From Tubulanus polymorphus (taxonomy: Eukaryota; Animalia; Nemertea), in NCBI RefSeq assembly GCF_964204645.1, contig NC_134028.1:18297653-18361652 (forward strand): a stretch of DNA of 64,000 nucleotides. Reading direction: 5' to 3'. Both the position numbers and the translations under genes were made by a program. The notes under the pieces were generated by a model. That model made no database searches. It was not told where the DNA came from and worked only from the letters and a program-made list of their open reading frames with translations. Positions 21,689-62,865 of the stretch are shown in pieces (within the stretch, counting starts at the first letter, position 1; each line of letters opens with the position of its first letter).

Positions 21689-21697
21689 TTATTTTAG

Positions 21698-32642: not shown

Positions 32643-32671
32643 TCAAATTTTTATAAAAATATGTATTATAA

Positions 32672-33025: not shown

Positions 33026-33042
33026 GAAAATATGTAAAATAA

Positions 33043-33796: not shown

Positions 33797-33872
33797 TTTT
33801 TTCACTATATAAAAGAATATAACTGTTGGGCAGAGTATATGTTTTGGGTTTGATTTTAAACGTGAGAAAGAA

Positions 33873-42133: not shown

Positions 42134-42243
42134 CTTTTTTCGTCAAAGTGAGTTCGTTCAGGATTCTGCATTATTTGGGGGTTGAAGACATGTCAAACAC
42201 TGAGGTAGGGGGTCATGATTCACATTGATAGCTAAATAGTAGA

Positions 42244-42822: not shown

Positions 42823-43260
42823 GTTTTTAGTCCAGTTGGTTAAAGCAAAGACATTTATCGAATTAAGGAACTCAACATATAGTGAAAAATATGTTGAATC
42901 GTTATAAACACCCGATAATACTCAGCTATATAGTTGGTTGTATTAGCTCTAGTAAACATATGTTACCAGCTTATATTTCAATTGTAAAGAGTTAATTAAT
43001 TTCATTAATCTAAATGCTTTTATTATTGATTTTTTTTCAACTTCAACGCGTTGTGTATACGGCGAACGTTAGCGAATCACAAATCTCATAATTTACAAGT
43101 CTCAACACACTTGTTCTAGATGTTTATACTAGAAAATGATTCTATTTTAACCTATATACATTCAATGTACAGAGCCATAGAATAAATCTATAAATTCACA
43201 GCTGTTACAGTTGTTACTATGACGACGAGACATTATGACACATCATAATCAGAAACGTGT

Positions 43261-43275
43261 AGAATATTCTAGAAA
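43261..43275. promoter_or_regulatory. candidate heat-shock element
   Basis: aGAAt-aTTCt-aGAAa, three alternating nGAAn units upstream of the accessory ORF. Confidence 0.4.
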
Positions 43276-43646
43276 GACGCACCGGAACTAGATGATGTAG
43301 CATAATCAACAACGTGTCATTCTAGAAATCGCCCCGGAAATGGACATACGCTGTAATATTGTGCTCAGGATATTCTATCTTTCGAAACGAAATTAGGAGT
43401 TTATAGTTTACAATTATAAATCTAAATGTAAGTACTGTTTTTTGTAGTTATTGGGGCTATTAAATATGAAACCTTTAAGTGCTTTTGACAACTACAACTT
43501 CATACAGTTAATTCTATTTTACGTTAGATAGATAATAACTTGAACTATAATAAGTTATAATAATTAGAAACGATAGACTTGAAAATATTTATATCATATA
43601 ATATCGCGGTTCCTGTTCTACCGCTGATATCTTTTAGTTGAATAAA

Positions 43647-44396
43647 ATGTCGTGTGTATCAAGAAGTACTCTTGATTCTCAGAGGACAACCGAAATGGAA
43701 GATGAACAAACCGAAATAGAAGATGAAAAAACCGAAATAGAAGATGAACAAACCGAAATGGAAGATGAAGTAAAAGAATCTTTCGATATAGAAGATGAAA
43801 CGTTAGAAGAAGTTAAAAAACATTTATATTACCATCAAGAAATGACATTAATTTTAGAAAAAATTATAGAAAACCAGCAATCAAGCGTAACATCATTACC
43901 GAAAAGACCAACAACCAATGTAGAAATATTGTTAAGACTAAAAGGAACAAAAACTAAAAAGAAAATGAGCGGAAATGAGTTAAATAAGTTTTTAAAATCA
44001 AAATTATCAAATGAAAAAGATGTAAGTTTTAAAGAAATAGAAGGTATAACATCATTTAATGAAATAACTGTTTTATTGAAAAAAAATTATAGAACCTTGT
44101 TATTCAAAAAAGCAAAGCATTTATGGGATTATATCATTTTCGGGGATTGTTTAAATAGGGGATTTTTAATGTTTAATAAACAAACTGCGGGGATTCCTTG
44201 GGCTTCTTGGGTTAAAAAATATATAGGTATCAGTGTTGGGCATGAAAGAAAATTAAGGAGCGTAGGGAGATTAATTATATATAAAAGATTCAAATTATTA
44301 AGTTTGTCATTTAGTGAAGTAATCAGAAATATGCCAGAAATTGAAAAAATGCTTGTCAATGATCCAGAAATTGAAAAGTTCTGGTTGGAATTATAA
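43647..44396 (+). CDS. Polinton accessory protein with acidic EDEQTE repeats (probable ATG 43647)
   Basis: Open frame; homolog in E1; candidate 5'UTR intron 43428-43637. Confidence 0.8.
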   Translation: MSCVSRSTLDSQRTTEMEDEQTEIEDEKTEIEDEQTEMEDEVKESFDIEDETLEEVKKHLYYHQEMTLILEKIIENQQSSVTSLPKRPTTNVEILLRLKGTKTKKKMSGNELNKFLKSKLSNEKDVSFKEIEGITSFNEITVLLKKNYRTLLFKKAKHLWDYIIFGDCLNRGFLMFNKQTAGIPWASWVKKYIGISVGHERKLRSVGRLIIYKRFKLLSLSFSEVIRNMPEIEKMLVNDPEIEKFWLEL

Positions 44397-44465
44397 ATCA
44401 AATTATGTACAACGACTGAACAACTTGTATAATGTATTGTGTAAATCTGTTTGGTGAATTTTTAT

Positions 44466-44892
44466 GTTCGGTCGTTTCTATTTCTAGAATGAATATATAA
44501 TTATGATTAGCGCATGCGCATTGATCAAAAGCGCGCACGAATGCGCGCTTTTGATTAGGTATGATTTGTGAATTTTTATGTTTAGTCGTTTCTATTATGA
44601 TTAACGCATACGCATTAAGCAAAACCGGCCATAAATGGCCGCATGTAACACATGTAACACATGTAACGCATGTGTTGTTTCTATTTTACAGAATTTCTAG
44701 AATGAATATATAATTATGATTAACGCATGCGCATTAAGCAAAAGCGCGCACGAATGCGCGGTTTTACCTAATGTGAACATGTTTTGATATTTTCTGTGTT
44801 CGGTCGTTTCTATTTTACAGAATTTCTAGAATGAATATATAATTATGATTAACGCATGCGCATTAAGCAAAAGCGCGCATGAATGCGCGGTT
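44466..44892. repeat. tandem array with CGCATGCGCA palindromes
   Basis: Unit TTCTAGAATGAATATATAATTATGATTAACGCATGCGCATTAAGCAAAAGCGCGCACGAATGCGCG, three full copies and one partial. Confidence 0.9.
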
Positions 44893-45035
44893 TTGCCCAG
44901 TGGTATTATTTAGATATCAAGGAATCGAAACAACTTATCAAAAGCAGCGAGGAATGAAAAAGGATGACGTTGATCGAAGAAATGGAAGAGGATTCTAAAA
45001 TATTAACCAATTTAGTAAAAAAATATGTATAATAA

Positions 45036-45709
45036 ATGGAACCAGAACAACCACAAACTATCAATATTACAAATAACACTGGCGTTATAAACATATATTA
45101 CAAGAAGTGTTCTAAATGTGAATTAAATAAATCATTAACAGAATTTAGTAAGCGTAAGATTAGCAAAGATGGTTTTCAATATTACTGTAAAACTTGCATT
45201 AAACTATATACCAAACAATATCGAGAAGATAATAGAGAATCTTATAATGATTATATGACAGAATATATGAGAGAAAGATATCAAACAGATCTTAATTTTA
45301 GATTGAAACAATGCTTAAGATCTAGATTAACATAATTATTCAACAAAGAAACACATTCAGAAACACTATCTAATCTATTGGGTTGTTCAGATGAATTTCT
45401 CAAATCATGGATAATATATCAATTCGATGATAAAATGAATATAGATAATTATGGGGATTATTACCATATGATCACGTGTTACCAATATCTAAATTTAACA
45501 TGAACGATGAATACAATAAAAAACTTATTTGGAATTGGAAAAATTTAAGACCTTTAGAAAAGAAAGAAAATCAAACCAAATCTAATAAACTAGATTTACA
45601 GTTATATTTAGAACAGTTAACAAAGGCAAAGAAATTTATTGATCAATGGAACAATAATCCAAATAATGAACAATACGTTGAGGAATTTGATATCAAGGAT
45701 CCGAAATGA
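45036..45709 (+). pseudogene. HNH-type endonuclease, E3 (stop at 45333, frameshift ~45468)
   Basis: CSKC..KDGFQYYCKTC, DHVLPISKF, NLRPLEKKENQTKSNK; ortholog of E1 24227-24867. Confidence 0.78.
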
Positions 45710-46012
45710 CTTATCTGGACAGTTATAACTACTGCTCCTAATAGATAAACAAAAGTAGTGATATATCAAATCCTAATTTAAATAAAAAGTATTTAAAAAA
45801 CAATAACTTCAACTAGCTATCTAATTCTATTATATTTTTAATATTTTCTTTTCAAAAAGAGAATACTTTATATTTTGAATAGATCCGAATAGAAATTCTT
45901 TAAATTCAAATAGCTAGTATCAGTAGTCAATACTAGAATTCTTTAACTTTAACTAGCTAGTATCATTTTATAATACTTATAATACTATTCTTATTAAATT
46001 TCTCTAATATAA

Positions 46013-46620
46013 ATGTCAAAGAAATCTAATAAGAATAGTATTGATATTGAAAAAACATTAGATGATTTAGGTATTAGTGATAATAAGGATACAGTTGTTT
46101 CTAATTCTATTCAAGTTAATAACAATATAGATTATGAATACTATTTATATTGTAAGCATCATCTAGAACTATTGATTGCTGGCGGGAAATCTAAGGACTT
46201 CTTAGGAAAAATAATAACTTTTCAAGAACTAGACTCTATGAAACCCGATAAAGTAATCAAATATTTTAAGATTTATGAAGAGGCAAGATTAGCTAGAATA
46301 AATGATTCTATTTCAGATGGTATTGTCAAATGTTATTCTAAGTTATGTAACCAGTTAATACCAATTGATGATGAAAATAAATTATATAATGATTTGAAAA
46401 TGACTACTTAGTTATGACTGAATTACAAAAATGGGTCGGTTATGCTTCATTTCAATTAGGATCGGTTATGACATTGATTTCTACTGGCGTCATAACATTT
46501 TCGAACATCAAACCTATGGAATATAAATCAGGTAAGAACGAAACAGATGACGCTGTACTACAACCAAACGTCGAAACAGAAAATGAATCAAAACAAAAAT
46601 TAACTAAAATAAATGAGTGA
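46013..46620 (+). pseudogene. Polinton conserved hypothetical protein, frameshift ~46400
   Basis: ORFs 46013 and 46414 together match E1 21698-22282. Confidence 0.8.
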
Positions 46621-47008
46621 TGGAGTTAAGAAAAAGCCTAGATCCGAGAAACAAATTAAATGGGCAAGAGAATTAGGTAAAAGATCATCAGAATTAAAAA
46701 AAGCTAAGAAAAAGAAATTAACTGATATAAATGAATCACAGACTTTATCTGATGGTGTCGTACGGCACCCACACGGTGGTATTGATTCAAATAATAATCC
46801 ATCTAATTCTTCTAATGCTGGAAGTAATTATAAATTATATATTACAATTGGATTAGTAACAGTTATTATATTATCCGGTGTAATATATAAATCAAAATTC
46901 AAATCTGATGATAAAGATGATTCCAATGATGATAAACCTATTATACCAGAAAATAAGTCAAATCATAAATCAAATGAAAATAAATCTAAAATATTATTAA
47001 TGGATTAA
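46613..47008 (+). CDS. Polinton small basic membrane protein (131 aa)
   Basis: Ortholog of E1 21320-21688 plus a 9-aa insert GVVRHPHGG. Confidence 0.8.
   Translation: MSDGVKKKPRSEKQIKWARELGKRSSELKKAKKKKLTDINESQTLSDGVVRHPHGGIDSNNNPSNSSNAGSNYKLYITIGLVTVIILSGVIYKSKFKSDDKDDSNDDKPIIPENKSNHKSNENKSKILLMD
46754..46780 (+). mobile_element. 27-bp GC-rich hairpin micro-insertion, copy C (in frame)
   Basis: GGTGTCGTACGGCACCCACACGGTGGT between GAT and ATT; E1 has uninterrupted GATATT. Confidence 0.8.
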
Positions 47009-47011
47009 AAT

Positions 47012-48100
47012 ATGATGAAAAAAGAACAATATTTGAGAGATTTATATTACAACCCAGAAAGTGAAGTATCATATTCTAACGTTTCAGAATTATGGGATAA
47101 AATTAAATCTGATAAAGAAAAAATAAAATATAGTGAATTAAAATCATGGTTACAAAATCAACCCACATATCAAATTCATAAAAAGATGGATAAAAAATAT
47201 TTAACAAGAAAAGTAATGGTTTCATATATTGACCAACAATGGCAAGCTGATTTAATTGACATGAAAAACTTAGAAGAATATAACAAAGGATATTTTTGGA
47301 TACTAAATGTTATAGATATATTCAGTAGATACGCATGGAGTATCCCGATTAAAAATAAAACTGGTATAGAAGTTACAAATTCTTTCAAATTAATATTTAA
47401 AGAAGCTATCCCAGATAAAATACAATTTGATGAAGGTAAAGAATTTTATAACAAACATTTCAAAAAACTATTATCTGATAACGATGTAGAATATTTTTCA
47501 ACACATTCAGATAAAAAAGCATCCGTTATAGAAAGATTTAATAAAACATTGAAAACTAGAATGTGGAAATATTTCACCGCTAATGAAACATATAAATATA
47601 TCGATGTGTTAGATGATTTAGTTAAAGGTTATAATAATTCTAAACATAGTTCTATAAATATGAAACCTATACAAGCTAGAAAAGAAGAAAATTCAGAAAT
47701 AGTTTGGAATAATTTATATGGTGCGTTTGTTACACATGATTTTGGAGAACCTAAATTTAAAATAGGACAACACGTTAGAATTTCTAAATATCGAAAAACA
47801 TTTTATAAAGGTTATACCCCTAATTTTACTGAAGAAATATTTAAAATTAAAAAGATAATATTAACTAAACCATTTGTTTATAAACTAGAAGATCTAAAAG
47901 ATGAAGAAATATTAGGTTATTTCTATGAACAAGAATTATCACTTGTACCAAATCCAGATGAAATAGAATACAAAATAGAAAAAGTATTGAAAACTAAAAC
48001 TCTTAAAGGAAAAAAGTATTCTTTGGTGAAATATAAAGGATATGATGATAAATTTAATGAATGGATTTTATCTAGTAAAATTAAAAGAATAAATGAATAA
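47012..48100 (+). CDS. retroviral-like integrase with C-terminal chromodomain (362 aa)
   Basis: DDE core (WQADLID, QFDEGKEF, IERFNKTLK); chromodomain-like YKIEKVLK...LVKYKGYDDKFNEWI; consistent with 6-bp TSDs. Confidence 0.96.
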   Translation: MMKKEQYLRDLYYNPESEVSYSNVSELWDKIKSDKEKIKYSELKSWLQNQPTYQIHKKMDKKYLTRKVMVSYIDQQWQADLIDMKNLEEYNKGYFWILNVIDIFSRYAWSIPIKNKTGIEVTNSFKLIFKEAIPDKIQFDEGKEFYNKHFKKLLSDNDVEYFSTHSDKKASVIERFNKTLKTRMWKYFTANETYKYIDVLDDLVKGYNNSKHSSINMKPIQARKEENSEIVWNNLYGAFVTHDFGEPKFKIGQHVRISKYRKTFYKGYTPNFTEEIFKIKKIILTKPFVYKLEDLKDEEILGYFYEQELSLVPNPDEIEYKIEKVLKTKTLKGKKYSLVKYKGYDDKFNEWILSSKIKRINE

Positions 48101-48707
48101 AGATTTATTTATATTTGAACCACATAATATGTTAGTTACTGGAGTTACAAATTGTGGTAAAACACACTTCATATTATATTTATTAGAAACTATTTATAAA
48201 AATCATTTTGATAATATAATATTATTCTGCCCAACTTATGAAATGAATGAAACGTATAATAGAGATATAGTTTTTAAAGATAAAAAGTTTATTATATTAA
48301 ATTCTAAAACAGTGAAAGATAATTTAGATAATTGTATAAAAATTGCAATAGATATTTATAAAGGATCTAATACATTATTTATTATTGATGATTGTGCAAA
48401 TTTACATGATTCAAAAGTTAGAGAAAGTGAGTTATGTTATTTAGCTTTCTCTGGTAGACATTTTGGGATAACAACATGGGTTTTAAATCAGAAATATAAT
48501 TCAATTGTGAAAGATTTTAGAGAGAATATAAGATTTCTAGTTTTATTCTACAACAAAGATAGAAAATCTATGCAACAATCATTGGAAGAAAATCAAATTA
48601 TACCTCCTGAATTACATGATGAATATATGAATAAATTAAAGAATAATAAAGGTTCCAAATTACTTATGAGATTACAATTTCCATATGAATATAAATTTAT
48701 AAAATAA
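48093..48707 (+). CDS. A32/FtsK-like DNA packaging ATPase (204 aa)
   Basis: Walker A GVTNCGKT, Walker B LFIIDD, SGRHFGI motif. Confidence 0.92.
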   Translation: MNKDLFIFEPHNMLVTGVTNCGKTHFILYLLETIYKNHFDNIILFCPTYEMNETYNRDIVFKDKKFIILNSKTVKDNLDNCIKIAIDIYKGSNTLFIIDDCANLHDSKVRESELCYLAFSGRHFGITTWVLNQKYNSIVKDFRENIRFLVLFYNKDRKSMQQSLEENQIIPPELHDEYMNKLKNNKGSKLLMRLQFPYEYKFIK

Positions 48708-48723
48708 AATCCTAATTCAAAAT

Positions 48724-49105
48724 ATTATAGAATTCACTGTATACTAATGGATGAGTGGATGAATTGGATGAATTGGATGAATTGGATGAGTGGATGAATG
48801 GATGAGTGTAATAATATATAATTTACATATGTTTTTTATTTTTAAAACAGTAAGAGTTTGATTTGAAGTTATTTTATCAATTTTATACCATATTTAAATA
48901 TTATTTTAATAATATATATATATATATTGTGTTAAATTTAATAAAGAATATAAATATTATATTTATACTCATACTATTCTTCCAATTTATGTGTTAAAAA
49001 GTAAAATATATATATTATTATACTCATCCACTCTTCCACTCATCCAACTCATCCAACTCTTCCAACTCATCCATTCATCCATCAATATACAGTGAATTCT
49101 ATAAT
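48724..49105. repeat. fold-back structure between convergent genes
   Basis: 20-bp perfect IR ATTATAGAATTCACTGTATA/TATACAGTGAATTCTATAAT followed inward by opposed (GGATGA[A/G]T)n arrays and an AT-rich centre. Confidence 0.88.
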
Positions 49106-49109
49106 CTTT

Positions 49110-50165
49110 TTAATTTTCATTTTCATATTTTTCTTTAAGCTTATTGTATTCTAACCATAAATTCCTTTGCATTTTCATTGGTATAGGTCCTAAATGATTC
49201 TCGAGTTTATATTTATTGAATGTTTTTCTTGAAAATATTTTTGGAATATAATTTTCGATTTCAGTTTTAGATGGATGTTTATTTAAAAATTCTCTAAAAT
49301 CATCATATTTAAGTTCAAATAAGTTCATTGCATAAGTAACATTTGGTTTAAAGTTATCTAACTTTTTCAATATGGTAACTATATCATTACTCAATAAATA
49401 ATCTATAAATGTTTTTCTATACCACCGATAATCTAATATATTCTTATTATTAAATTTTGGATTTATAACTGTTGGATTTTCTATTACATTATCTGTACCA
49501 ATATGTTTAATTGAGTATTTATGATTCAATTGTTTATCATATATTACATATTCTTTACATTTTTCACACCAAGATTTAAATACTTGTATTGCATGGGCTG
49601 AATCATTTCCACCTTTTGTTTTTAATTTATAATGTTTTGCCCAATTAGCCTTTGTTATACATTCATTACAGAAGGCACAATAATTCTGATCCTCTTTGCA
49701 TTTATCTTTATATATATTGGCATATGTTTTTACTAATTGTAAAATATGTTCATCTTTTTTGATGTGTAATAAATAATCATTATAATTATCAAAATCTTCT
49801 TCACAATACATACATCTGATGTTATCTTTTGGTTGAACATTTGATTTTTCTATTTTAGGTTCAATATTATATTCTATTTTTGTTTCAATCTTATCATCAT
49901 TCGATGTAGAAGGTATAACATTATCTTCTATTTTAGATTCAATATCATTCTTATCTTCTATTTTAGGTTCAATATTATCTTCTATTTTAGGTTCAATATT
50001 ATCTTCTATTTTTGTTTCAATATTCTTATCTATTTTACTTATTCTATATTTGAATTGATTAAAGTAATCTCCAAAATACTTACTATATTCATCATAAGGT
50101 AATATATAATATATATCTGATATCATTTCACTTGGAGATTGTATTTCATATATTCCACCTTCCAT
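49110..50165 (-). CDS. multi zinc-finger protein with KIEDNIEP repeats (351 aa)
   Basis: CMYC..H..H, CAFC..H..H, CEKC..H..H; open frame; TAAATG start. Confidence 0.8.
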   Translation of the reverse strand: MEGGIYEIQSPSEMISDIYYILPYDEYSKYFGDYFNQFKYRISKIDKNIETKIEDNIEPKIEDNIEPKIEDKNDIESKIEDNVIPSTSNDDKIETKIEYNIEPKIEKSNVQPKDNIRCMYCEEDFDNYNDYLLHIKKDEHILQLVKTYANIYKDKCKEDQNYCAFCNECITKANWAKHYKLKTKGGNDSAHAIQVFKSWCEKCKEYVIYDKQLNHKYSIKHIGTDNVIENPTVINPKFNNKNILDYRWYRKTFIDYLLSNDIVTILKKLDNFKPNVTYAMNLFELKYDDFREFLNKHPSKTEIENYIPKIFSRKTFNKYKLENHLGPIPMKMQRNLWLEYNKLKEKYENEN

Positions 50166-50197
50166 TTATTATATACATTTTTATTAAAGTTAAAATT

Positions 50198-51445
50198 CTA
50201 ATACATAACACTATCTAATTGTGAATTTACAATATTTAATTGCGCGTCAGATATAATATAAATGTGCATTTTAAAATTTTTGATTCCCTTTTTCTTTGTC
50301 ATGAATAATTGTATTCCATCTTTTGTGTTCTGTAGTTTTTTCCCAGAACCATGTAATGAATTATCTTCAGTTGTTCTAAAATCTAACCATAATGCATATT
50401 TATTACCGGTATAATAATCAATTTGATTAATGTTACAATTTTCAAATGATTTTATTTTTTCATTCATAAAATGTTTTTTAATTTCTACCCATTGATCAAT
50501 CATTCTCATTCCTTGACAAAATATTTTATTCGCTATTCCTTCGATAGTTATTTCTACTTTTGTTATTTCAGGATTATAATAATTATCAACATTTATTGCA
50601 CCATTAGTATACGTTCCAATAGTAAAAAATATTAATATACCTTTAATAGATCTTCTAGGGAAGTTAATATTCTCATTAATAATTTCATCATTTGCATTAA
50701 TAGTTACAGTTTTAAGTTTATCAATATAATCATATAATAATGAAAACCCTTGATTATATTTAGTTTGAATTATACTTGAAATATTTTCATCAGTTACTGT
50801 ATCATATTCTAAACATATATTCGATAATTTATAACTCATATCTTTAACAACGCTAGATAATACAATTTCATTTACAGGAGCAAATGTTATCTCAAATATA
50901 ATATCTTCTTGAATTGCGTATTTATATAAAGGTGCATTATTATTTATCAATTCAAAGTCTAATGGAATTTTATATTTGCTTCCATATATACTTTTTATCA
51001 ATTTATCTACATCATTTGTTAATATTGCGCTATTAGCTTCTGATCTTAATTTATTTTGGTTTTCTGATTGAATTCCTTGTAATATCATATTATTTCTATT
51101 TTCTTTAGTTAACCATAAATCTTTATAATGCATAAATAAATTATAATCATCTAATGAGAAAACTGTTTCCGGACCAATCTTTATTGTTAACTTTTTAATC
51201 AAATATCTTCCAACATTATCAACAACATAATTATTATTATTACCGGCTACTGTTATATCGGCTGATAAATAAATACTATTTGGAACGTAAAAAGTATTTT
51301 GTGTTAATCTAGGAATTCTAACGTATAAAGTTTCATCGGGATTAATATTTGAAGGGTTATGAGTAATTATATGATGTGATCTTTCTGCTTTAATAGCATT
51401 AGATATTCTATGATTCTTCGAAGGACTTATATAACTCCCACTCAT
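50198..51445 (-). CDS. major capsid protein, probable double jelly roll (415 aa)
   Basis: Size, beta-rich pattern, NPSNINPDETLYVRIP...VPNSIYLSADI N-terminus and position in the element match Polinton MCPs. Confidence 0.8.
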   Translation of the reverse strand: MSGSYISPSKNHRISNAIKAERSHHIITHNPSNINPDETLYVRIPRLTQNTFYVPNSIYLSADITVAGNNNNYVVDNVGRYLIKKLTIKIGPETVFSLDDYNLFMHYKDLWLTKENRNNMILQGIQSENQNKLRSEANSAILTNDVDKLIKSIYGSKYKIPLDFELINNNAPLYKYAIQEDIIFEITFAPVNEIVLSSVVKDMSYKLSNICLEYDTVTDENISSIIQTKYNQGFSLLYDYIDKLKTVTINANDEIINENINFPRRSIKGILIFFTIGTYTNGAINVDNYYNPEITKVEITIEGIANKIFCQGMRMIDQWVEIKKHFMNEKIKSFENCNINQIDYYTGNKYALWLDFRTTEDNSLHGSGKKLQNTKDGIQLFMTKKKGIKNFKMHIYIISDAQLNIVNSQLDSVMY

Positions 51446-51465
51446 TTATTTAACAAAAAAATTAA

Positions 51466-52924
51466 TTATTTATTTTTTATCATATTCACTAACCCAAAAA
51501 TAATAGCACTTACAACTGTAATTAAAAATAAAATAATATGTTCAGCAGCAAAGTTAATAATGTTTCCTGCAGATTTCAATATAAAACCAACAATTGAAGC
51601 AATAACTCCTGGCAATGCTGCAGCAGATTTTTTAGATAGTTCCCATAAATATTTTGCTAATTTCTTTAAACCATCTTTAACTTTATCTTGTATAGAATTA
51701 TTACCTGGAGGTTTATCTGGTTTATTGGGAGTAGGAGTAGATTTCAAAGCATTTGATATTGCTAAACCAATTGTTGTAAATAACATAGTTACAGCTGTTA
51801 GAATTGAAAGAATTGTTATTCCTTCTAATTTAAATAATAACTTTATTCTGTCTTTTAATGATATTTCAGAATTTGGTTTAATCAACAAATCTTTAAAAAT
51901 AACTTTTAATCTATTAATATTATAATCATATGATTTTAATAATAATTTAATTTCTTCTTTTTGTAATTCTATGTTATATTTTAAATCATCTTTTTCTTTT
52001 TCTAAATATGCATTTCTTTTTTTAAATTCAATTTCTTCAATAACTTTATTATCTCTATCTAATTTTAGTTGTTCTATTTCTTTATTTTTTATCAGTTAAT
52101 TCTTTTTCTAAAGTTCTAATCTTAAAATCTCTTATACTTTTATTATGCGCAATTTTATCAGATGCAAGTCTTATACTAATAATTTCTCTAATTGCTTTAT
52201 CAGAAAATATATCTAAATCTTCTAATTCTTGATCTGTTGCATCAAGTAACCCATTCGGTAAAAGTTTTTCAATTGGAACTTTATTTTATTTAAGTTTACT
52301 AGTTTTGGAAGTTATATTCTGTTCAGAAGTTGTTTCTGTTTCTAAATTATTATCGATTGTTTCAAATAATTCATTAATTCCTTGTTTAAATACTCTTTCA
52401 TTTTTAATAATTTCTTCTTGTGTTACATCTTCTGGTTCATTACTATTTCTTATTCTTTTAATTCTAGATAGGTCTAACTTAAGCAAAGTTGATTCTGCTA
52501 ATATTTTTTCTTGTTTTTTATAAGAGATATCGATATAATAATCATCTTTCAAACGATAATAATATTCACCATCTAAAAACTTTAATTCTTGTACTAAAAG
52601 TCTAGCGCCTCTGGTATTGATATTATATCCAGATTTTTCAAATATAGGTTTGAAATTATAAATATATTCATTATATTCTAAATTTTGTTTTACTAAATCT
52701 GGATTTTCATTTTCAGGATTTATTCTCGATCTAGTTCTTCTATCAAATTCATCTGTTGATTGACCTTTAGAACCACTATCTGCTAAATTAGAATTATATG
52801 CTGATTCATCATCATTATCAATATTAGTTTCATTAAAATCAGGTTGTGGTTCATCATCAATATATCCTTCATTATTATTTCCCATTTCTCCCATTTCATA
52901 ATCTTCTCCACCTTCTACATCCAT
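51466..52924 (-). pseudogene. acidic/coiled-coil protein with C-terminal hydrophobic helices (one gene; stop at 52286, frameshift ~52090)
   Basis: ORFs 52286-52924 and 51466-51888 are joined by coding-like coiled-coil sequence; single TAAATG start at 52924. Confidence 0.65.
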
Positions 52925-52940
52925 TTACATAATAAAAAAA

Positions 52941-54329
52941 TTAAAATTTAAAATATAATATTCCTCCGATTACAATTCCTATACAAGTTATAGTTAATTT
53001 AGTATTTTCATGGGATTTATTATCATCATTTAGTTTAATTATATCATGTTGAATTTTATCAGTTCTATTATTTTCTGATGTATTGTAATCTTTTATTTTA
53101 GAATCATTATTTAATTTAATATTCTTAGTTTTAGTTTCAGTTGATTGAATGTGTTTTTTATTTTTTTCACCTTCCATTAATTTTGGAGCAGTGATAATCT
53201 TTTTATTTATATCATTTAACCCAAATGAATTATTTATTGTTGCAGTTTTAATTAGATTATTATAACCAATTATATTTCCCATCTTCAATACTAAATCATT
53301 AGAAATAATTAATAGATTAGGGCCTATACAATAATTAAGTCTTACATGAGATTTATCTAAATAATTTTGATATCTTATAATGTTTTCTGGAATCGATCTA
53401 TTTTTATCATTATGAATTGAATCTTCAAATAAAACTTTAAATTGTTTTTGTGTATCGAATGATGTATTCAAATTTCCAATTATCGGTGATCTTGTTTCAA
53501 CTTGCGCACCTAAAATACATATCAAATAAATTCTAATAGATTGATTTATTCTTTGTATACCTGATTTAGTAAAACCTTCACTATTCTCTAAAATAAAATA
53601 TACCCAACCATTATTGTTTTCTTGTTTTAAATGATCATAAAATTTCGGTAATTTATTGAAATTTAATGTTTCTAAATCCTTTGTTTCTATTTTACCATAA
53701 CCTAATTTATAATTATAGATATTGTAAAAACTATTAGATGGTATGGGAAGTGCACAATATTCTGCAATCTTTTTAGGGCAAGGAAGTGATCTTATTGTTC
53801 CAGTTTTTGTTCTAAAATCAGAATTATTTATATCTATATTAAATTCATTACAAATTTTATAAAACTTAGATAAATTAATATTATTATCTAATTCTTTAAA
53901 ATATCTAGATCCTGGTAAAGCGCACTCTAATTCATTTAATATTATTCTGATTTGAAAGTATGTATGAAATCTAAATAAACTTTGAATTAATTTATATTTA
54001 GAATTATTCAAATGATCATTCAAACTAATTCCACATCCTGTTGTTGCACAATAAACAGCAAAATTTAATTGATTCTGCCAATACTTCATATTAGATTTTA
54101 ATAACCATTGTTTTTCATCTTTCAATTTTTTAAAATTAATTAAATATACATGAAATATATTTTCCATCTTTGCATTAAAATTATTAGTTTCAGTAACATA
54201 AATATATAAATCAATTAATGAATCTAAAACTTCATTTCTATATGTAATATCTTTATTAAAATCTATTGCTGGAATATTATATTTAATTGATTTATTATAT
54301 CGGAAAGCTTTTGGAAAACTATCTACCAT
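52941..54329 (-). CDS. Polinton conserved protein with C-terminal membrane anchor (462 aa)
   Basis: Open frame; WQNQLNFAVYCATTGCGIS motif; terminal LTITCIGIVIGGILYF. Confidence 0.82.
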   Translation of the reverse strand: MVDSFPKAFRYNKSIKYNIPAIDFNKDITYRNEVLDSLIDLYIYVTETNNFNAKMENIFHVYLINFKKLKDEKQWLLKSNMKYWQNQLNFAVYCATTGCGISLNDHLNNSKYKLIQSLFRFHTYFQIRIILNELECALPGSRYFKELDNNINLSKFYKICNEFNIDINNSDFRTKTGTIRSLPCPKKIAEYCALPIPSNSFYNIYNYKLGYGKIETKDLETLNFNKLPKFYDHLKQENNNGWVYFILENSEGFTKSGIQRINQSIRIYLICILGAQVETRSPIIGNLNTSFDTQKQFKVLFEDSIHNDKNRSIPENIIRYQNYLDKSHVRLNYCIGPNLLIISNDLVLKMGNIIGYNNLIKTATINNSFGLNDINKKIITAPKLMEGEKNKKHIQSTETKTKNIKLNNDSKIKDYNTSENNRTDKIQHDIIKLNDDNKSHENTKLTITCIGIVIGGILYFKF

Positions 54330-54346
54330 TTATATAATTAAAAAAA

Positions 54347-54781
54347 TTAATAATTTATTAATTCTTTTAATAATTTATCTTGTTCTTCAACTGTTATATG
54401 ACCATTTAAACTTATTATATAATCTAGTGTGTTCTTTAATTTATTAATTTCTTTTATATTAGATTTTATTTTTTCTTTATTATTTTTTATATTTAATTTT
54501 GAACTTATACCAGTTAAAACACTTGAACTTAATCCTAACACACCAATTGATATAGCTAAAGGTGTTAATGGACTGAATATTGCTAGAAATGTTATTACAG
54601 AACTAATTGTAACCGAACCACTTATAATCAAATAATATATAATTTTACTTTTTAAATATTTTTTCTTTTAAACTTTTAAGTCACTTTCAAATTCTAATAT
54701 TTGTTTTTCTAAATATGTTTTTAATTTAGTTTTATTTATATCATGAGGAATAATATCAATACTATCAACTTTATCTTCCAT
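54347..54781 (-). pseudogene. two-helix membrane protein flanked by coiled coils (in-frame stop ~54669)
   Basis: TAAATG start at 54781 (MEDKVDSID) is in frame with the 94-aa hydrophobic ORF. Confidence 0.65.
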
Positions 54782-54800
54782 TTATTTAGAATAAAAATTA

Positions 54801-55223
54801 CTAATTAGTAAACTTATAAGCAACAAATATAACAATAACAGTTCCACCTAAAATCCATATTATTTCATATTTTTGTTGTTCTTTACTTGGGGTATAATAA
54901 TCTGATAATTTAGGTTTGTATAGATGTAATTTTTCTTTATTGGTTACTGCGTTATATAAACTCATTGCATCATCAAATGATTGAAAATCTCTATGTGAAA
55001 TCTTCTGATTATATAATTCTTTATTGATGTAATCCATATAGTTTTGCCTCTTTTCTCTATATTCTTCTGCAGCTTTATTGTATTTCTCTAACGCTAAGTT
55101 ATGTCTTCTTTGTTCTCCTAATGAACTATTTTTATCAATATGTTTAAATAAATAACCACCACCAGTAAATGCTAAAGCGTTAACAATTGCCGATCCTATA
55201 ATAGTTATAATTGCAGAAGCCAT
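54801..55223 (-). CDS. membrane protein with hydrophobic N- and C-termini (140 aa)
   Basis: MASAIITIIGSAIVNALAFTGGGYLF; IIWILGGTVIVIFVAY; first codons also present in E2 at 34415. Confidence 0.82.
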   Translation of the reverse strand: MASAIITIIGSAIVNALAFTGGGYLFKHIDKNSSLGEQRRHNLALEKYNKAAEEYREKRQNYMDYINKELYNQKISHRDFQSFDDAMSLYNAVTNKEKLHLYKPKLSDYYTPSKEQQKYEIIWILGGTVIVIFVAYKFTN

Positions 55224-55247
55224 TTATTTAACAAAAAAATTATGCAT

Positions 55248-55469
55248 TTATATGGGAGGAATATATTTTTGTTTTTCCAAATAATCAATAGTTAAATTAG
55301 ATAAAGTAACTGCTAATGTTAACTTTAAAATATCATTTATATCAAATCTATCAACATTAACACTTCCCATTTTGAATACTTTTTTTAATACCATTGAATA
55401 ACCAACCGTTCCAACTGATAGTAAGGCACCATTATATAATCCAGTTATTATCCACTTATTATCACTCAT
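55248..55469 (-). CDS. small hydrophobic protein (73 aa)
   Basis: Conserved with E2 34169-34390. Confidence 0.75.
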   Translation of the reverse strand: MSDNKWIITGLYNGALLSVGTVGYSMVLKKVFKMGSVNVDRFDINDILKLTLAVTLSNLTIDYLEKQKYIPPI

Positions 55470-55766
55470 TTATTTATCAAAAAAATTACTATCTTCAAAA
55501 TATTTAGTTATCTTAGTGATGATTAATTCAACATTTATTTCATTACTAGTTTCATTTGTATATATTTCAATTATTATTTTTTTAATATCATCAATTATAA
55601 AATCTTCATCTAATTCATAAAATCTTAAAGATTCTCTAATTAAATTAGTAATCTTTTCTACATTTAAAGTTTCTTTATCTATTGTTGTTTCATACTCAAA
55701 TGTTGTTTCATTAGAAAATGTAATATTTTTGATATGTGTTATTACATCATTAATGTTAAATTTCAT
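55470..55766 (-). CDS. acidic hypothetical protein (98 aa)
   Basis: Conserved with E2 33873-34172. Confidence 0.7.
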   Translation of the reverse strand: MKFNINDVITHIKNITFSNETTFEYETTIDKETLNVEKITNLIRESLRFYELDEDFIIDDIKKIIIEIYTNETSNEINVELIITKITKYFEDSNFFDK

Positions 55767-55844
55767 TTCTTTCTCACGTTTAAAATCAAATCCAAAACAT
55801 ATACTCGGTCCAACAGTTATATATTCATTTATATATCAATAAAA

Positions 55845-56600
55845 TTACTCTTTACATCTTATAACTAATTCATAAATTACAGGAAAGTTATTTAAATCAA
55901 TTAAGTATCCATTATGATTTCTTATTTCTAATTTAAAATTATTAAATTTAGGAATGCATGGTTTAAAATCACATTCTGTTAAATTATAATTTATTTGAGT
56001 TCCAAATTGTTTAACATTTTTTAGCGGTAAAATATTTAGTATACTAGAACTACAAATTGTTTCTTTAGTTGCTTCGAAAGTTTTTGTAGGCTCAATTAAA
56101 TTGCAATAAATATAAAAGTGTGTAAAAGGTATTATATTTGAGCTGCCTTCTGCGTTTCCAGTAACTGTAAGTGGTTTAATTCCTAACATTTTAGCTAGTG
56201 GTTTGTTTACCATAAATTTATGTTGTTCATTAGATATCTTTATTCTTATTTTATTAGTACTATCAATTTTATTAAATTTAATTTCAAATACAGAAGTGCC
56301 CCCGATTTTCAACCGAGCTCTTCTATTAATTTCCTGCGCTAATGATTCTAAATTATATAATCCTGGTTTTAAAAATATATGAAACCATTTATCTTTATTT
56401 CTCATATAAATCATAAACCCTCTATGTTCAAAAGTTTTATCCGATATATTATAAAAAGAATTACATAAACTTACATTAACTAATTTTAAATCTACACAAA
56501 TCTTAAATTCTCTATCTAATTGAACTAGTAAATTATGAGATTTATAATTTGTAAGCCTTCTAGAATCTACAAATATTCTGTATTCTTTTAATTCTACCAT
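55845..56600 (-). CDS. minor capsid (penton) protein (251 aa)
   Basis: IFVDSR N-terminus, KPGLYNL, FYIYCNLI, LEIRNHNGYLIDLNNFP C-terminus: pattern typical of Polinton single jelly-roll pentons. Confidence 0.78.
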   Translation of the reverse strand: MVELKEYRIFVDSRRLTNYKSHNLLVQLDREFKICVDLKLVNVSLCNSFYNISDKTFEHRGFMIYMRNKDKWFHIFLKPGLYNLESLAQEINRRARLKIGGTSVFEIKFNKIDSTNKIRIKISNEQHKFMVNKPLAKMLGIKPLTVTGNAEGSSNIIPFTHFYIYCNLIEPTKTFEATKETICSSSILNILPLKNVKQFGTQINYNLTECDFKPCIPKFNNFKLEIRNHNGYLIDLNNFPVIYELVIRCKE

Positions 56601-56617
56601 TTATTTTACATATTTTC

Positions 56618-56959
56618 TTATTCGAAATCTATTTCATGGTGCCCTTTTTCATTCTTACCTTTATATACGAAATAGAAATCTCCAGAACATAATTCTTCTA
56701 GATCTTCACTTGATAATCTATGAAATCTATCTGGTAAATATGTTCTGAATTTATATGTATTTCCTTTTAATCCTTCATATTCTAAATGAATTACTAATTT
56801 ATCTCCATATTTATTAGTAATTGTTTCAATGTTAGTAATTAAATATTTCTTGTGAATTGTTAACTCAGTTAGTTTTTTAAATTTATAATCTACAGATTTG
56901 ACGCTTGAAGTATCTTTAATTCTATCTAAGAATTCACTGTGTACTTGTTTACTCTCCAT
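56618..56959 (-). CDS. small conserved protein, possibly OB-fold (113 aa)
   Basis: Conserved with E2 32672-33025; lies directly after pPolB. Confidence 0.65.
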   Translation of the reverse strand: MESKQVHSEFLDRIKDTSSVKSVDYKFKKLTELTIHKKYLITNIETITNKYGDKLVIHLEYEGLKGNTYKFRTYLPDRFHRLSSEDLEELCSGDFYFVYKGKNEKGHHEIDFE

Positions 56960-56987
56960 TTATTATACAAATTTTTATTGAAATTTA

Positions 56988-59900
56988 TTAACACGCTAGA
57001 ATCCTTTTCATAATCTCATTTTCTTTTGTTTCTTCTCTTTTGAATTTTATATATTCATCTAAATTGCAACCATAGGCGACTGTGTGGATTCCATCATCTA
57101 AAATATATCTTTTATCATCAAATGGGTTTAGACTTATCTTCTCTATCTCTTCAATATACATTTCATGATCTTCAGATCTTAAACATTTCATCTTATGTTT
57201 TCTAACTTCTTCATTAAATATACAATTGATGTAATCTTTAAAATGAATATTCTATATTATAATCAGTTATTTCAAACATCCCATAAGGTTGTGGTTCCAT
57301 CATTGCCCAACCATAAAGATTATTTGCATCTATAATAATAATAATTTTGTATAATGTATAATAATTTATATCCAGGATTATCATTTACATTGAAATATCT
57401 ATCACCTAATACACCTGAAACACCTCCTCTTATAGATTTTTCAAATAATAGTAATTGATCTATATTTGTTAACAAATCCATTTTTATATCTGTAAATTTT
57501 AATCCACAATCCCATGTTAATCCTGGTGATGAATAACAATGACAAGGATCAATATTGAAATATTTTAGGTTTACATCTCTAAACCTTTCGAATATATCGG
57601 TTAATAATAATACATCTGATTTTAAATATAAATCTACTAATTGCCCATGATTTTCTATTTTGAAATGATTCCAAATATTCAATGTTCTATTATATACTTC
57701 ATCTTTAACATATTCATTTTTTAATTCATCATAGAATTGTTCTTTCAATAATTCAGTTATTTTAAAATCATTATGATTTTTATAGAAAGAATATGGAATT
57801 GCTCCTTTATATCTCATTAATTGAAAATCATCATAATTTGGGTAATATTCTTTTAATATCTTTAATTCATCATCAACTAATGATTTTGATAAGTTATCTA
57901 ATGAACTACTTAAAAATCTATATGAATCTATAAATCTTAAGCATCCAAATTGGAAAGATATATAATTCTCAGATGTTTTAGCTAACATTCTAAATTTATA
58001 AGTTGGTATTTTATCTTTTGATCTATTTGAATTTAATATTTCTATTTCATTATTGATTTCTTCTATTTTATGACATAACTGTTTGATGAATAAATGTGCA
58101 TCATATCCTGATAGATTATGAAATATAACTGGTACAAAGTTAATTTTCTTAGCTTGTAAGTTACAATTCTCATGTGCAGCGCCTCTAAACTTTCCATTCA
58201 AATGATCATGGTCTCTTACTTTTTTATCTTTATAATTAAATATCTTTTCACAATAATAACATTTATCTGCAAACTCAAATTCTTCTTTATCTTCTTCTGT
58301 CATAATTATTTCTTTATTTGTATTCAATAATTTACTAAATCTTATTTCATATTCAATTAATAAGTCACAAAAATGATTGATAACATTTTCATTTCTATAA
58401 TTATAATATTCACTTTCGATTAGTTCTGGATAATTAGATTTAATATATAACCCGAAAGCTGCAGCTGATTGATGAATCTTTTTAATAGTATTTGTTATTG
58501 GTGGTTCATCTGAATAATCACTTTCATTAGAATTTAATTTCTTTCTTTTATAATATATATCTTTTCTATCTTTATCTGTTAATTCTTTATTTAATGATTC
58601 AAAATCTCCATATATTACAAATGGTACTTTATTTTTGTAATCATATTTTTTGAATTCTAATATTTTATCCTTTTCATTTGGTAAAACTAATTTACAATAA
58701 TCATGATTATCACATAGTTGTTTATGATTTAATAATGTACTTTCATTACTGAATCTATGTAAACATTTTCTACATAGATATATTTTATGGTGATCATTTT
58801 CTGATTTGAAAAATAAATCTATTTGTTTAATCCACATATAATGATTCTCATAATATAGTATATCTATAACATCGTTTGAATCATAATCTTTTGATAGGTA
58901 TAAAGGTTCTAATGTATAATGTTTAATATTATTTCCTTTTGTATTTGGTAATTTAATTAAATCAAATACATTTATTTTAAGATTATTATCTCTTTCTATT
59001 TTTGGAATATTTTTAATTCTAACAGGATACTTATCTATCTTATAATTATTTTCAAATTGTTTATAATGAGTTAATCTATAAGTATGTTTATTATAATCTT
59101 CAACTGGATGTAAACAACTTATTATAACCCATAGAAAACATTTATCATCTTCATTTTGTACATTTATTACAGCATTAGTTTTAAATGGTAGTTTAATATA
59201 ACTTGATGCTTCAATATCTGGTTCTTTATAATATGATAAATTATTTTCATCAATTGGTTTTGATTTAGTTAACTTATTATATTTTGTGTTATAAACATGT
59301 AAAGTTATAAATATTATCTCATCAAATATTAAACCAGATCCTTCAAAATATTTCTCTTCTATTTTAGTTTTTACTTCATTATAACATTTATCTAATTTAT
59401 CATCTATATGTTGTTTAGAAATAATATGTTGTGAATGAGAATTTATATTATATATTGGTTTATCTTCAGATTTTATAAACTTTACTTTAGAAGATATACT
59501 TATCTTAGGATATTCAACATCTGTAATTATTTTTATTATTTCTTTCATATTTTCTAAATGTTTTTTATTTTCTTCTATTGTTTTTCCTTTATGAAATTTA
59601 AACTCGATAGCTGCTGGACCAATATCACTTTTAAATGCTTCGGTTATTTCTATATCTTTTTTATTATCTAATGAATTAATATAATTTCTTACATCTTCCA
59701 TATATGGTCTTTTATTGTTTAATTTATTTTTTATGCTTTTAATTGTCTTCTGTTTCTTATCGTTATCATTATCAAAATAATCTTCACCTAAAATATCATT
59801 ATTCTTATTTCTAATATGACTTATAGATTTTAAATGTTCTTTATAATATCTTTTATCACTGAATGATTGATTACATGTATCACATTTGTATGTTTCTTTT

Positions 59901-60058
59901 TCATCCTTTAATTCTTCTAATTTATTTTCTAATATATCATCTTTATACTCTAGTTTCAATTTATTCTCTAAATGTGTTCTAGTTTTATTGTGTCTTGCTT
60001 TTTGGGATTTATCTATATCGATATTACATGTTGGGCAGTAGTACTTATTTGCTTCCAT
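56988..60058 (-). pseudogene. pPolB, E3: 912-aa open N-terminal part, then frameshifting insertion in motif A and ~1-kb deletion
   Basis: Frame breaks at KLLYI|DANNLYG (~57335-57355). Sequence jumps from QPYG to NIHFKDY (~57255), losing KxxxNxxYGK and DTDS. Confidence 0.96.
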
Positions 60059-60548
60059 TTTAATACTATATTTTTTATTAAAATTGATTTTAGAAGTTCA
60101 ATAATTTAAATGTTATTCATATATATATGAATATTTTAAGAGTAATAGGGGTAATGGGCTTTCAGGCTAAAGGTTTAATGATCGAGTTCATTAAAAAACA
60201 AAATATTAAAAGTAATTAAAAAACTATAATATATTTTCATAACCGCGTGCATTTCAGTTGAATAATAGAATAATTATTATCATTTGAATATATTTGATTA
60301 TTTGAATTTGTGTATTGTAATTAAATCAATTGGTCGCGGAGCGGAGCGGTAGCGAAGTGGAGCGACCAATTGATTTAATACAATATGCTTTTTATATTAT
60401 TGATATCTTAGAATAAATATTTAGTTTTGATATAAAATGCACGCGGTTATGAAAATATATTATAGTTTTTTAATTACTTTTAATATTTTGTTTTTTAATG
60501 GGCTCGACCGTTCGACCTTTGGCCTGAAAGCCCATTACCCCTATTACT
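59970..60548. repeat. E3 right TIR (palindrome 60141-60548)
   Basis: Reverse complement of 42244-42822. Confidence 0.96.
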
Positions 60549-62865
60549 AGTAGAACTTTCATTTTGGTAACAGTTATTCCACAACCTATGTTACTTGTTG
60601 TTCATTTGCATTTTTTAATTGAAGTCGATTTTGATCATAGTTGCCCCCATATGATAATTGTGTTTAATAGCTCTTATTTCTTCCCAACAGATTTGTAAGT
60701 CGAGCCACTGTTTAGTGTGGGCACAGGTGCTATTTGTATCCCTTAATTGTTCTACTGTTGGTCACCAGGATATATGTTTGTTACCTGACAGACTGATGTG
60801 TTTTTCAGAAAGGGAATTGGACTTGCGCTCAGTGTTCATTAAAGACTAATGAAAATATGAATAAAGAAATCACAGCAAAATTGGAGGTAGAGTATACTTC
60901 ATTCATCCTGTCATTCTGCCTATTGATTTTTTTCTCTTCTGATTGCTCTGCCTGCCCAACCAAAAAGCCTGGTCCAGTTATATTCTAAATAGAAATATTG
61001 CTTTAATTGCCCAGCAGTCATGGTGTTACTTCTAGTGAGACCATTGATAACACCTGATTTAGAAAATGTGTATGAATGTACGGTTTAGGTCTGGGTCATT
61101 CTAAATAAATTAGTTCATGGTGCGTGTTGAATTAGAGACTAACTTAAATGTCTGTGTGTGTTGTTAATGCTACTTGTGGGCACTAACCTAAAAAGCTGGT
61201 AGTACTTTCTGTCGTTCACTTCTCTATGTAGCTGCCAAAAACTGGTGTCGAAGCATATTAATTAACCGTCAACTTAGTTCGGAACATAAACTCAAAATAT
61301 AGCTGCAAAGCAGCGATAACGGGTTTTCTGGATGCATGTGATCGAAAGGAAAAATTAATTACCGGGTATTCGATGGACAAAAATAAAATGAGGTGATTTG
61401 GATATTATCGGAGCAATCCTCTTTTTGGTTGAATGGTCTAACCCCAGTAAAGTCCCCCGTGATTTGGAAATTCTCGGAGCCCTCCTTTATTTACTTACTA
61501 AATGACGTCACAAACTGTTATTTCGCCGGTGCTTGTTGTCTAACAATTCAATTCAATTTCGTTTCGAAGCTGTCAGTTGCCGAATCTGAATGAAGATGAA
61601 TTTTATTTGACGAAATCGGCGGAAAATACATAATAATAATAATCAACAGAATTTCAAGAGGATTTTCGACGAAAGTCAGAAAACCCTAATAAATATCCCT
61701 TGCGCTGAACTTTCCGTCGACACAACATTTTTGACATCGTGATCTTGTAGAGTCATGTCATATCTGTTATTTTTATTGGGGTCAGGACCTCTCTTCATTT
61801 TAACATGATTGGATAACCATTGGAAACCCATTTTACATTGCGCGTTGAACAGGTGCGCGTTGTTACTAGCAACTGCCTAGCGTCTTGCTACCAGGAAGAG
61901 ATTATGGGAATGCGCAAGCATAATACAATCTATTTATGTGCGTTATAGATATGCACAGTCGTCGCAATATGAAAGATGGCTTTGTGCTCGGCGTTTGAGC
62001 GAAAATTTTTCGAGGATACCACAATATTTAGCGAAACTACAGCAGATTAACTTACGGTAGCATATGATAACATTCTTTAAATATAAGGTGAATATAATGT
62101 CTAATTTCTCATAGTCACACTCTTTTCCTCCCTTTGTGAATTATACATTTAAACGAATGAAAGAGCCCATCTTCGTATCAGTCCAAATGGTTTACACGCC
62201 AAATGATGCCAAATTGTATAAAATTTCAATCAGAAAATTCATCAGTTTTGGTCAAACTACGTCCGTGTTATGGATTTTCAAAGAAAAATATAATCACCTT
62301 CTCTCAACATAATCAGTAGCCTACTCAATCAATGTTTTCTGGATCCTTTCAACTTGAAAATTCAATTCTATAATTAAGATGTAAATAACATTACATAGGC
62401 CTACATTTTTTCTAATTTCAGATTTTATGAAAAATCGTCATAATTAACCTCTAAATTGTTTCTTTTTTTCCAGACTATAGACTATATTTAAGTAACGATC
62501 GGTGGATATAGAATGTTAGGCGCAAAGCTCAATACAAATTGGTAGGTGACCTGTAAATCAGATTTTTTTTAAATTTCATTTAGGGAGCATCTCAAAATTT
62601 TAATAGTTCTGTTGATTAGAATAACTGTCTAATTGGTTTAAACCCCCCCCCACCGCCCCCCCCTTTGTTAGACCCATGCCATGTTAGACCCAAAATCAAT
62701 AGTTGGAACTATTGATTTTCTAATGAGAGACCACAGACAAAGATGAGACATTCTCACGAGTGTACTTTGGTCACAACTTTTAATTCTCTTTTTATTCTTC
62801 ATATTGTTTTTTTTTTAAACTTTTTTTAAATTTTTAATCAAACTCTAATAGACTTTATAAAAATA

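Follow-up and report, generated by a model that had tools for sequence, protein, structure and literature searches.

Helper-matched promoters are an established feature of protist virophages. In Cafeteria, the endogenous mavirus-like elements (EMALEs) come in types with different helper promoter motifs, and a reaction to Cafeteria roenbergensis virus (CroV) is described for no type but the one bearing the CroV motif (PMC10945749). It is likewise known that polinton-like viruses (PLVs) occur with entomopoxvirus occlusion bodies; these PLVs co-purify with entomopoxviruses and have been proposed to be poxvirus hyperparasites in animals, although that report mentions neither promoters, motifs nor TAAA and presents no promoter analysis (Barth et al., 2024; PMC11296320). 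For animal polintons, both the mode of gene expression and the choice among transposon, autonomous virus and satellite have long been open questions with little experimental handle. Here we describe a polinton-like provirus, E3, that lies in a 64,000-nt stretch of the nemertean Tubulanus polymorphus (contig NC_134028.1, positions 18,297,653 to 18,361,652 of the forward strand; hereafter the window, from whose first nucleotide all coordinates are counted). Most genes of E3 begin with the sequence TAAATG, in which a putative promoter is fused to the start codon.

E3 resembles mavirus and the EMALEs in being a small integrating virus with a double-jelly-roll (DJR) capsid, a DNA polymerase of family B that is primed by a protein (pPolB; pPolB-like in E3) and an rve integrase, without a detected RNA polymerase, and these virophages carry, type by type, a motif matched to the helper (PMC10945749). 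They are distinguished by a protist host, the CroV motif, a virophage capsid and protease, and a helper dependence shown experimentally, whereas E3 has a likely animal host, no detected protease and a TAAATG fused to the start codon, and its dependence on a helper is proposed from sequence. The entomopoxvirus-associated PLVs are described as polinton-like elements of about 12 kb with different capsids and an adenain protease in all four; two lack an rve integrase, and two carry a tyrosine recombinase or a primase-helicase (PMC11296320). By comparison, E3 is 18 kb long, rve-integrated and present in high copy number, and the link to poxviruses is a promoter signature rather than co-isolation. 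With Maverick-Polintons of groups 1 and 2 (Polintoviricetes) it shares a pPolB-like gene, an rve integrase, a DJR capsid, an A32 ATPase, long terminal inverted repeats (TIRs) and a 6-bp target-site duplication (TSD), but neither a cysteine protease nor a phospholipase was detected in E3, which encodes several membrane proteins instead. A family scan of its 20 open reading frames (ORFs; E 0.1), a few of which remain without a label, found no protease family, including the adenain-type maturation protease of most group 1 Mavericks. The same scan found no RNA polymerase, in agreement with the earlier claim, made from the sequence alone, that the element encodes none. With no protease detected, we assign E3 neither to the group 1 Mavericks nor to the virophages. 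Some animal elements from octocorals, hydrozoans and bivalves are described as lying beyond the main groups (bioRxiv 2026.06.19.733378), and the E3 family may belong with them.

The sequence-only reading had assigned TAAATG to 13 of 17 listed E3 gene starts and TAAAATG to two more, at 43647 and 60058, and all of these positions proved correct. It had also suggested a test for enrichment, and the excess is large: TAAATG occurs at 13/17 listed starts, and among the remaining ATGs of E3 the count is 46/709 (Fisher p = 3.4e-12). Since a TAA before an ATG makes that ATG the first in its frame, a second background was restricted to other ATGs that come first after a stop, and here the count is 46/497 (p = 2.8e-10). 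The claim that the integrase and a 98-amino-acid (aa) ORF lack the motif holds for these ORFs as such (47012 and 55766), but for the latter the homologous start is different. Residues 3-24 of the orthologue in the related locus L003 align at 55820-55755, in a frame that differs from that of the 98-aa ORF and directly behind a TAAATG at 55828. When this homologous start is counted, 14/17 E3 genes carry TAAATG. The motif is extended to AATAAATG at 10 of the 13 listed starts. Its retention in two further copies within the window, E1 and E2, was also borne out, since all seven alignable orthologues of TAAATG genes keep it and the E2 pPolB gene starts with TAAATG; because these copies are 72-95% identical to E3, their agreement is weak evidence when taken alone.

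More distant relatives were also compared. A capsid search yielded 755 proteins, and 80 of 257 metagenome loci were analysed; a core gene set is common to all related loci, including sister clades that lack the motif. Loci were first grouped after the motif had been seen, and the grouping was afterwards compared with a 69-row capsid tree, built by a quick method from capsid ORFs of at least 300 aa. On this tree the 24 TAAATG rows fall into clade A (E3 with L001-L014), where they make up 14 of 15 rows, and clade B, where they make up all 10, and the distribution requires three changes, a number as low as this being reached in none of 500 shuffles. Either one or two origins of the motif are possible, as deep branches are weak. 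After removal of three near-duplicate loci, TAAATG is found at 77/87 core genes of the two clades (38/45 in A, 39/42 in B), where the misses include internal pieces of broken genes, compared with 2/276 in 52 other loci. The signal does not follow base composition: 11 other loci below 37% GC have TAAATG at 0/33 starts and AAAATG at 20/33, and the motif is retained at 44% GC in L008 and at 32-37% capsid identity, between clades whose intergenic DNA no longer aligns. Six further loci, taken from genome contigs, belong to neither clade A nor clade B and are mostly without the motif.

The signal also has a fixed spacing to an upstream thymidine. When non-gene TAAATG sites of the same loci serve as the comparison set, T lies nine bases upstream of TAAATG at 38/40 starts in subclade A1 (39/94 non-gene sites; p = 2e-9), 21/25 in A2 (6/30; p = 2e-6) and 33/45 in clade B (17/56; p = 2e-5), where the preference is strongest at -11 (37/45). 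At -10 the corresponding counts are 28/40, 20/25 and 33/45. Genes arranged head to head, with opposed start codons 8-31 nt apart, carry the motif on both sides, and TAAATG is found at 33/34 divergent starts and 38/49 tandem starts. The base at -3 of the ATG is T in clades A and B, whereas a purine occupies this position at 212/276 sister-clade starts. Coding strands of A1 contain 127 AATAAA in 26.6 kb (135 expected) and are thus not depleted of it; such abundance inside genes is a poor fit to nuclear processing. Among other words, TTTTTNT, the early terminator of poxviruses, is scarce in clade A coding strands (14 found, 39 expected), and this candidate signal was rejected because runs of five T and of five A are depleted too.

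Two classes of start were proposed in the sequence-only reading, with upstream T-runs at capsid and membrane genes and A-runs at others, as a staged programme. The quoted contexts are present in the sequence, except that the A-run start of pPolB in E3 is TAAAATG rather than TAAATG. The split itself is real near E3: bases -13 to -10 are bimodal in A1, with no T at 9/40 starts and four at 18/40, and in this subclade the major capsid protein (MCP) gene is T class in 5/5 cases and the penton gene A class in 2/2. Orthologues nevertheless switch class, as the 113-aa and HNH genes do between E3 and L003 or L001 and the MCP gene does in 2/7 A2 loci, where it is A class, and clade B is nearly devoid of A-class starts (3/46). 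The T at -9 is common to both classes, and in opposed pairs the A-run on one strand is the T-run of the partner gene. A staged expression programme is possible but weakly supported, the class not being conserved gene by gene.

These features invite comparison with the post-replicative promoters of poxviruses. According to a review, vaccinia late promoters contain TAAAT(G) and, ten bases upstream, a conserved T that lies among further Ts, whereas intermediate promoters contain TAAA without that T, with an AT-rich stretch 15-19 bases upstream (PMC11980589); in salmon gill poxvirus and an entomopoxvirus, late genes are likewise described as having TAAATG. Clades A and B share with vaccinia a TAAAT(G) laid over the start codon, an upstream T at about 10 nt with other Ts nearby, and opposed genes with a short spacer. 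They differ in having this T at -9 (clade A) or at -9 to -11 (clade B) and the signal at 89% of core genes, and the A class sits at -10 to -17 rather than at -15 to -19 as described for intermediate promoters. African swine fever virus (ASFV) and CroV do not fit as the type of helper, because the late initiator of ASFV is described as TATA and the CroV motif as TCTA. The start-fused signal is likely a promoter for a cytoplasmic RNA polymerase supplied by a co-infecting large DNA virus, and our preferred reading, to which we give somewhat less than even odds (roughly 0.45), is that E3 is an endogenous virophage-like satellite read by a large-DNA-virus polymerase of the poxvirus late type. Either a poxvirus proper or a relative that is yet to be characterised may serve as the helper, of which no genome was found.

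By analogy with vaccinia, transcription of E3 genes would start in the AAA of TAAATG, and slippage at this position would add a 5′ poly(A) leader, on the model of vaccinia and yeast virus-like elements (PMC6831550; PMC7163114), supplying the purine at -3 that is missing in the DNA. Expression would then follow replication of the helper's DNA. If the analogy with mavirus and the EMALEs holds as well, integrated copies would be silent until a matching helper infects the cell; their excision or copying would follow, with replication by pPolB and packaging next to the factory of the helper. The more ambitious proposal, that two protease-less polinton lineages rely wholly on poxvirus late transcription as germline satellites (tens of copies here) of undiscovered poxvirus-like viruses, so that the start signal would serve as a fingerprint of the helper, is offered tentatively and seems to us doubtful.

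Several observations weigh against a poxvirus-like helper. The conserved T of clade A is at -9 and not -10; the pPolB and 249-aa genes of E3 start with TAAAATG and the integrase with neither form; and the comparison with poxviruses rests on a review's wording, not on genome counts. The number of independent cases is small, as the motif arose once or twice on a quickly built tree with weak deep support, and undepleted AATAAA and close head-to-head starts are also seen in clades without TAAATG. We know of no poxvirus from non-arthropod invertebrates. No named poxvirus relative appeared among the 38 matches to the L003 nucleoside kinase or for the HNH-cluster protein of L008, whose one match was itself. 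Above all, the signal occurs in other large viruses. When IMG/VR was scanned, 27 stretches fitted the T-class pattern and at least 120 the head-to-head pattern, of which 80 were examined; these were mostly chance matches, and none was recognised as a poxvirus, although the collection may hold none. The A-class promoter pattern had no match in IMG/VR. Among loci selected by the pattern itself, non-poxvirus large-virus records have TAAATG at 3/10 starts (L106), 5/10 (L118, with a PCNA gene) and 4/6 (L130, with MSV199-domain genes). In a sample unselected for the motif, comprising 16 loci around MSV199 genes, the putative invertebrate iridescent virus (IIV) records L234 (IIV-9) and L235 (IIV-30) have TAAATG at 9/18 and 11/21 ORF starts, against backgrounds of 27/614 and 33/681. 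In addition, the sole virus homologue found for element genes sits in L235. Because iridovirus and other non-poxvirus records use TAAATG, the motif does not name a poxvirus helper. What stood of the poxvirus-like interpretation is that the signal is clade-specific, independent of AT content, accompanied by an upstream T near -10 and in breach of the rule of a purine at -3; what did not stand is the use of TAAATG alone as a diagnostic.

The same satellite mechanism might operate with an invertebrate iridovirus or another Pimascovirales-like virus as the helper, AATAAA(TG) being its late cytoplasmic signal. Nine of the 16 MSV199 loci, pooled, have TAAATG at 47/116 unique starts, 43 of these in the form AATAAATG, the form that also prevails in E3, and there are reports of iridovirus-like particles in marine invertebrates (PMC5923455). 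A family of proteins with two membrane segments, present in 15 element loci (members include L009 2348, L012 238 and L058 4129), matches an ORF of L235 (6961-7593, minus strand) at 33% identity (E 3e-16), and E3 contains a gene at 54350-54781 that aligns loosely with this family; the match is a sign of gene exchange between the polinton family and iridoviruses. The best match to the L235 ORF comes from a clade without TAAATG, however, and the finer layout of the starts differs. T at -9 is found at 18/47 iridovirus starts, compared with 38/40, 21/25 and 33/45 in A1, A2 and B (p = 2e-8 to 9e-4), and iridovirus genes lack the upstream T-tract. The AATAAATG form accounts for 43/47 iridovirus starts but for 23/40 in A1, 9/25 in A2 and 7/45 in B, so that AA before TAAATG is rare in the last clade. 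The TAATG/CATTA hairpin described for the 3′ ends of IIV transcripts has its motif near the stop in 11/38 iridovirus genes and in 1/99 element genes. Judged from the sequences, the layout favours the poxvirus late type over the iridovirus type, and we regard an iridovirus helper as distinctly unlikely. Somewhat more weight, though still short of likely, is due to an autonomous nuclear life, in which host RNA polymerase II, with a host or element factor, would use the T-tract and TAAATG as an initiator or translation signal, the resemblance to poxviruses being convergent. E3 integrates in host chromosomes and encodes several proteins without an assigned function, sister clades without the motif have the same gene set, and the virus TsV is described as a nuclear, lytic PLV (bioRxiv 2026.06.19.733378). 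Opposed start codons lie too close together (8-31 nt) to accommodate leaders, AATAAA is frequent inside the genes, and the absence of AG leaves no splice or trans-splice acceptor, all of which argue against it. Moreover, a TATA-like word at the ATG would place the polymerase II start inside the gene, and T at -3 is the poorest base in the Kozak context.

The signal might instead be a relic of an earlier helper-dependent life, with copies that now spread by transposition or not at all. At least six E3 genes are broken (the HNH gene, the ~200-aa gene, the 212 + 106-aa gene, the genes starting at 54781 and 55828, and PolB), and E1 and E2 are deleted or truncated, as such a history would predict; but perfect 579-nt TIRs, intact TSDs and a read depth about 24- to 41-fold above the flanks, with many different flanking sequences, point to recent spread, and the motif is kept across clades with unalignable intergenic DNA. 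We consider a pure relic improbable. Trivial causes are less credible by far. E3 is 76% AT, AATAAA overlaps 10/13 of its starts and lies near 18/31 stops in A1, so that one might suspect AT bias, a start context rich in A, coupling of stop and start, or overlap with the poly(A) signal of the gene upstream. AT bias is contradicted by the 0/33 count in other low-GC relatives and by the retention of TAAATG at 44% GC. Coupling of stop and start is ruled out, as is a poly(A) signal upstream, because head-to-head genes keep the motif on both sides, 33 of the 34 divergent starts having TAAATG with no upstream gene on their own strand, and clade B is mostly without AATAAA. The controls thus led us to reject AT bias, Kozak context, stop-start coupling, the poly(A) signal and a splice acceptor as readings of the motif.

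Within the literature searched, we found no report of a TAAATG start signal in polintons (the term 'adintovirus' and subscription journals lay outside its coverage) or of a AATAAATG start signal in iridoviruses (subscription journals again lying outside), and the consulted sections of an iridovirus review do not describe AATAAATG as a promoter motif (PMC5923455). A clade-specific, start-fused signal offers an experimental handle on polinton expression. If the helper is poxvirus-like, poxvirus relatives yet to be found would be predicted in invertebrates, and the model of endogenous virophages as a defence would reach beyond protists to animals; with an iridovirus as helper, the element would be a virophage of iridoviruses, of which the literature searched holds no report. 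Should the start signal prove to be a fingerprint of the helper, helper switches could be mapped from genomes alone.

E3 spans 42244-60548 as a full-length provirus of 18,305 bp and 24% GC in which several genes are broken, and is one of three copies of the same element in the window. Its left TIR (42244-42822, plus strand; 579 nt) matches the right TIR (59970-60548, minus strand) at 100%, each with an internal 127-nt hairpin, and the 6-bp TSD AGTAGA is found at 42238-42243 and 60549-60554. The right TIR holds the pPolB start, so that a second copy of this start is carried by the left TIR at 42734; the HNH start region is similar to it. E1 (16568-25481) is internally deleted and has lost the capsid block but retains both TIRs and the TSD TGTATC, and E2 (27967-34457) is a truncated copy with one TIR. 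In a raw DNA run of the same species, the median depth is ~470 over 28 element bins and 19.5 and 11.5 in two flank bins, and reads leaving the ends of E3 show many different flanks. Two contig sets of the species gave just four weak pieces each, which have no bearing on expression either way. A run labelled as marine metagenome contains contig pieces in 30/30 bins, some of them 96-98% identical, a weak hint of a marine setting. Flanking fragments at 8582-9841, 15071-16032 and 35371-37316 presumably represent Tigger-type, Gypsy-type and non-LTR retrotransposon ORFs. These Tigger- and retrotransposon-like fragments are consistent with an animal host, and E3 is likely integrated in an animal genome.

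On the plus strand, the left gene block begins with a 249-aa ORF without an assigned function (43647-44396, start TAAAATG), followed by a gene in two pieces for an HNH-type endonuclease (45036-45709, A class; the L001 homologue has a weak HNH match), a gene of a conserved ~200-aa family, also in two pieces (46013-46620), and one for a 131-aa protein with a single membrane segment (46613-47008), the last three having TAAATG. The rve integrase with a chromodomain (47012-48100; Pfam rve, E 6.8e-9) has no TAAATG in E3, although its orthologues in L001 and L067 do, and the A32-like packaging ATPase (48093-48707; Pox_A32, E 5e-12) completes the block with a TAAATG start.

All genes of the right block lie on the minus strand. 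Nearest the centre is a variable 351-aa cargo gene found in few copies (49110-50165; TAAATG, A class). The MCP gene (50198-51445; TAAATG, T class) was recognised as DJR by a predicted structure (pLDDT 85; Foldseek E 3e-16 to DJR capsids); the mavirus capsid matches at 10-11% identity and ranks below iridovirus and PBCV-1 capsids, and an atlas search placed a capsid homologue only among unnamed DJR clusters. Five further T-class genes with TAAATG follow: a conserved membrane-protein gene broken into 212-aa and 106-aa pieces (51466-52924); a gene for a conserved 462-aa protein with a C-terminal membrane helix (52941-54329), for which a structure search gave no fold match beyond that helix, a known fold being still possible; the two-membrane-segment gene with a weak SLATT-like match (54350-54781), interrupted by an in-frame stop after 37 codons; a 140-aa membrane protein (54801-55223); and a conserved small protein of 73 aa (55248-55469). 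The gene with the homologous TAAATG start at 55828 (55470-55828) has a frame broken near its 5′ end, and the 98-aa ORF is its downstream part. Beyond it lie a 251-aa putative penton, so labelled in the sequence-only reading (55845-56600; TAAATG, A class), and a 113-aa ORF (56618-56959; TAAATG), which is A class in E3 and T class in L003. The last gene (56988-60058, start TAAAATG) consists of a 912-aa ORF and fragments, its 3′ part being broken, and is a putative protein-primed PolB-like gene by its polymerase motifs; the 912-aa ORF has no Pfam polymerase match, and homologues exist across related loci.

Additional features of E3 lie between its genes. Four tandem repeats of ~100-129 nt with palindromic GCGCGC cores occupy the non-coding segment at 44461-44902, which might serve as an origin or in regulation. 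Precisely where the two gene blocks converge lies an inverted repeat with 115-nt arms (48706-49123), made of GGATGAAT-like units and possibly a terminator or a source of double-stranded RNA. Read depth is about tenfold lower over the 351-aa gene (48604-49931), and in this slot, which adjoins the MCP gene, the A-class cargo gene varies between copies and between relatives (L001 2461, L005 2287). Another cargo gene, in L003 (10343-10981, minus strand), encodes a deoxynucleoside kinase with a T-class TAAATG start; of three close homologues, none is named as viral.

Among the relatives, queries with the capsid, the ATPase and the 462-aa protein did not find the family in IMG/VR. Capsid homologues filed under Bartonella assemblies and bacterial metagenome-assembled genomes (P0045, P0121-P0128, L081-L086) are most likely host DNA that was carried along. 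The large-virus records L106 and L118, both uncultured, combine a T-run with TAAATG starts and are candidates for the kind of helper sought. In L234, L235 and seven related loci, ~40-50% of ORFs start with AATAAATG, and in many of the rest AATAAA precedes the ATG by 7-8 nt. The GC-rich clades without TAAATG (the L017-L063 and L021-L072 groups) have AATAAA near stops in 1/102 and 2/77 cases; other words (TTGAA, TGAAC) are enriched upstream of their genes at a spacing that is not fixed, TATAG taking this place in the L039 group, and the L017-L063 and L021-L072 clades may use other helpers.

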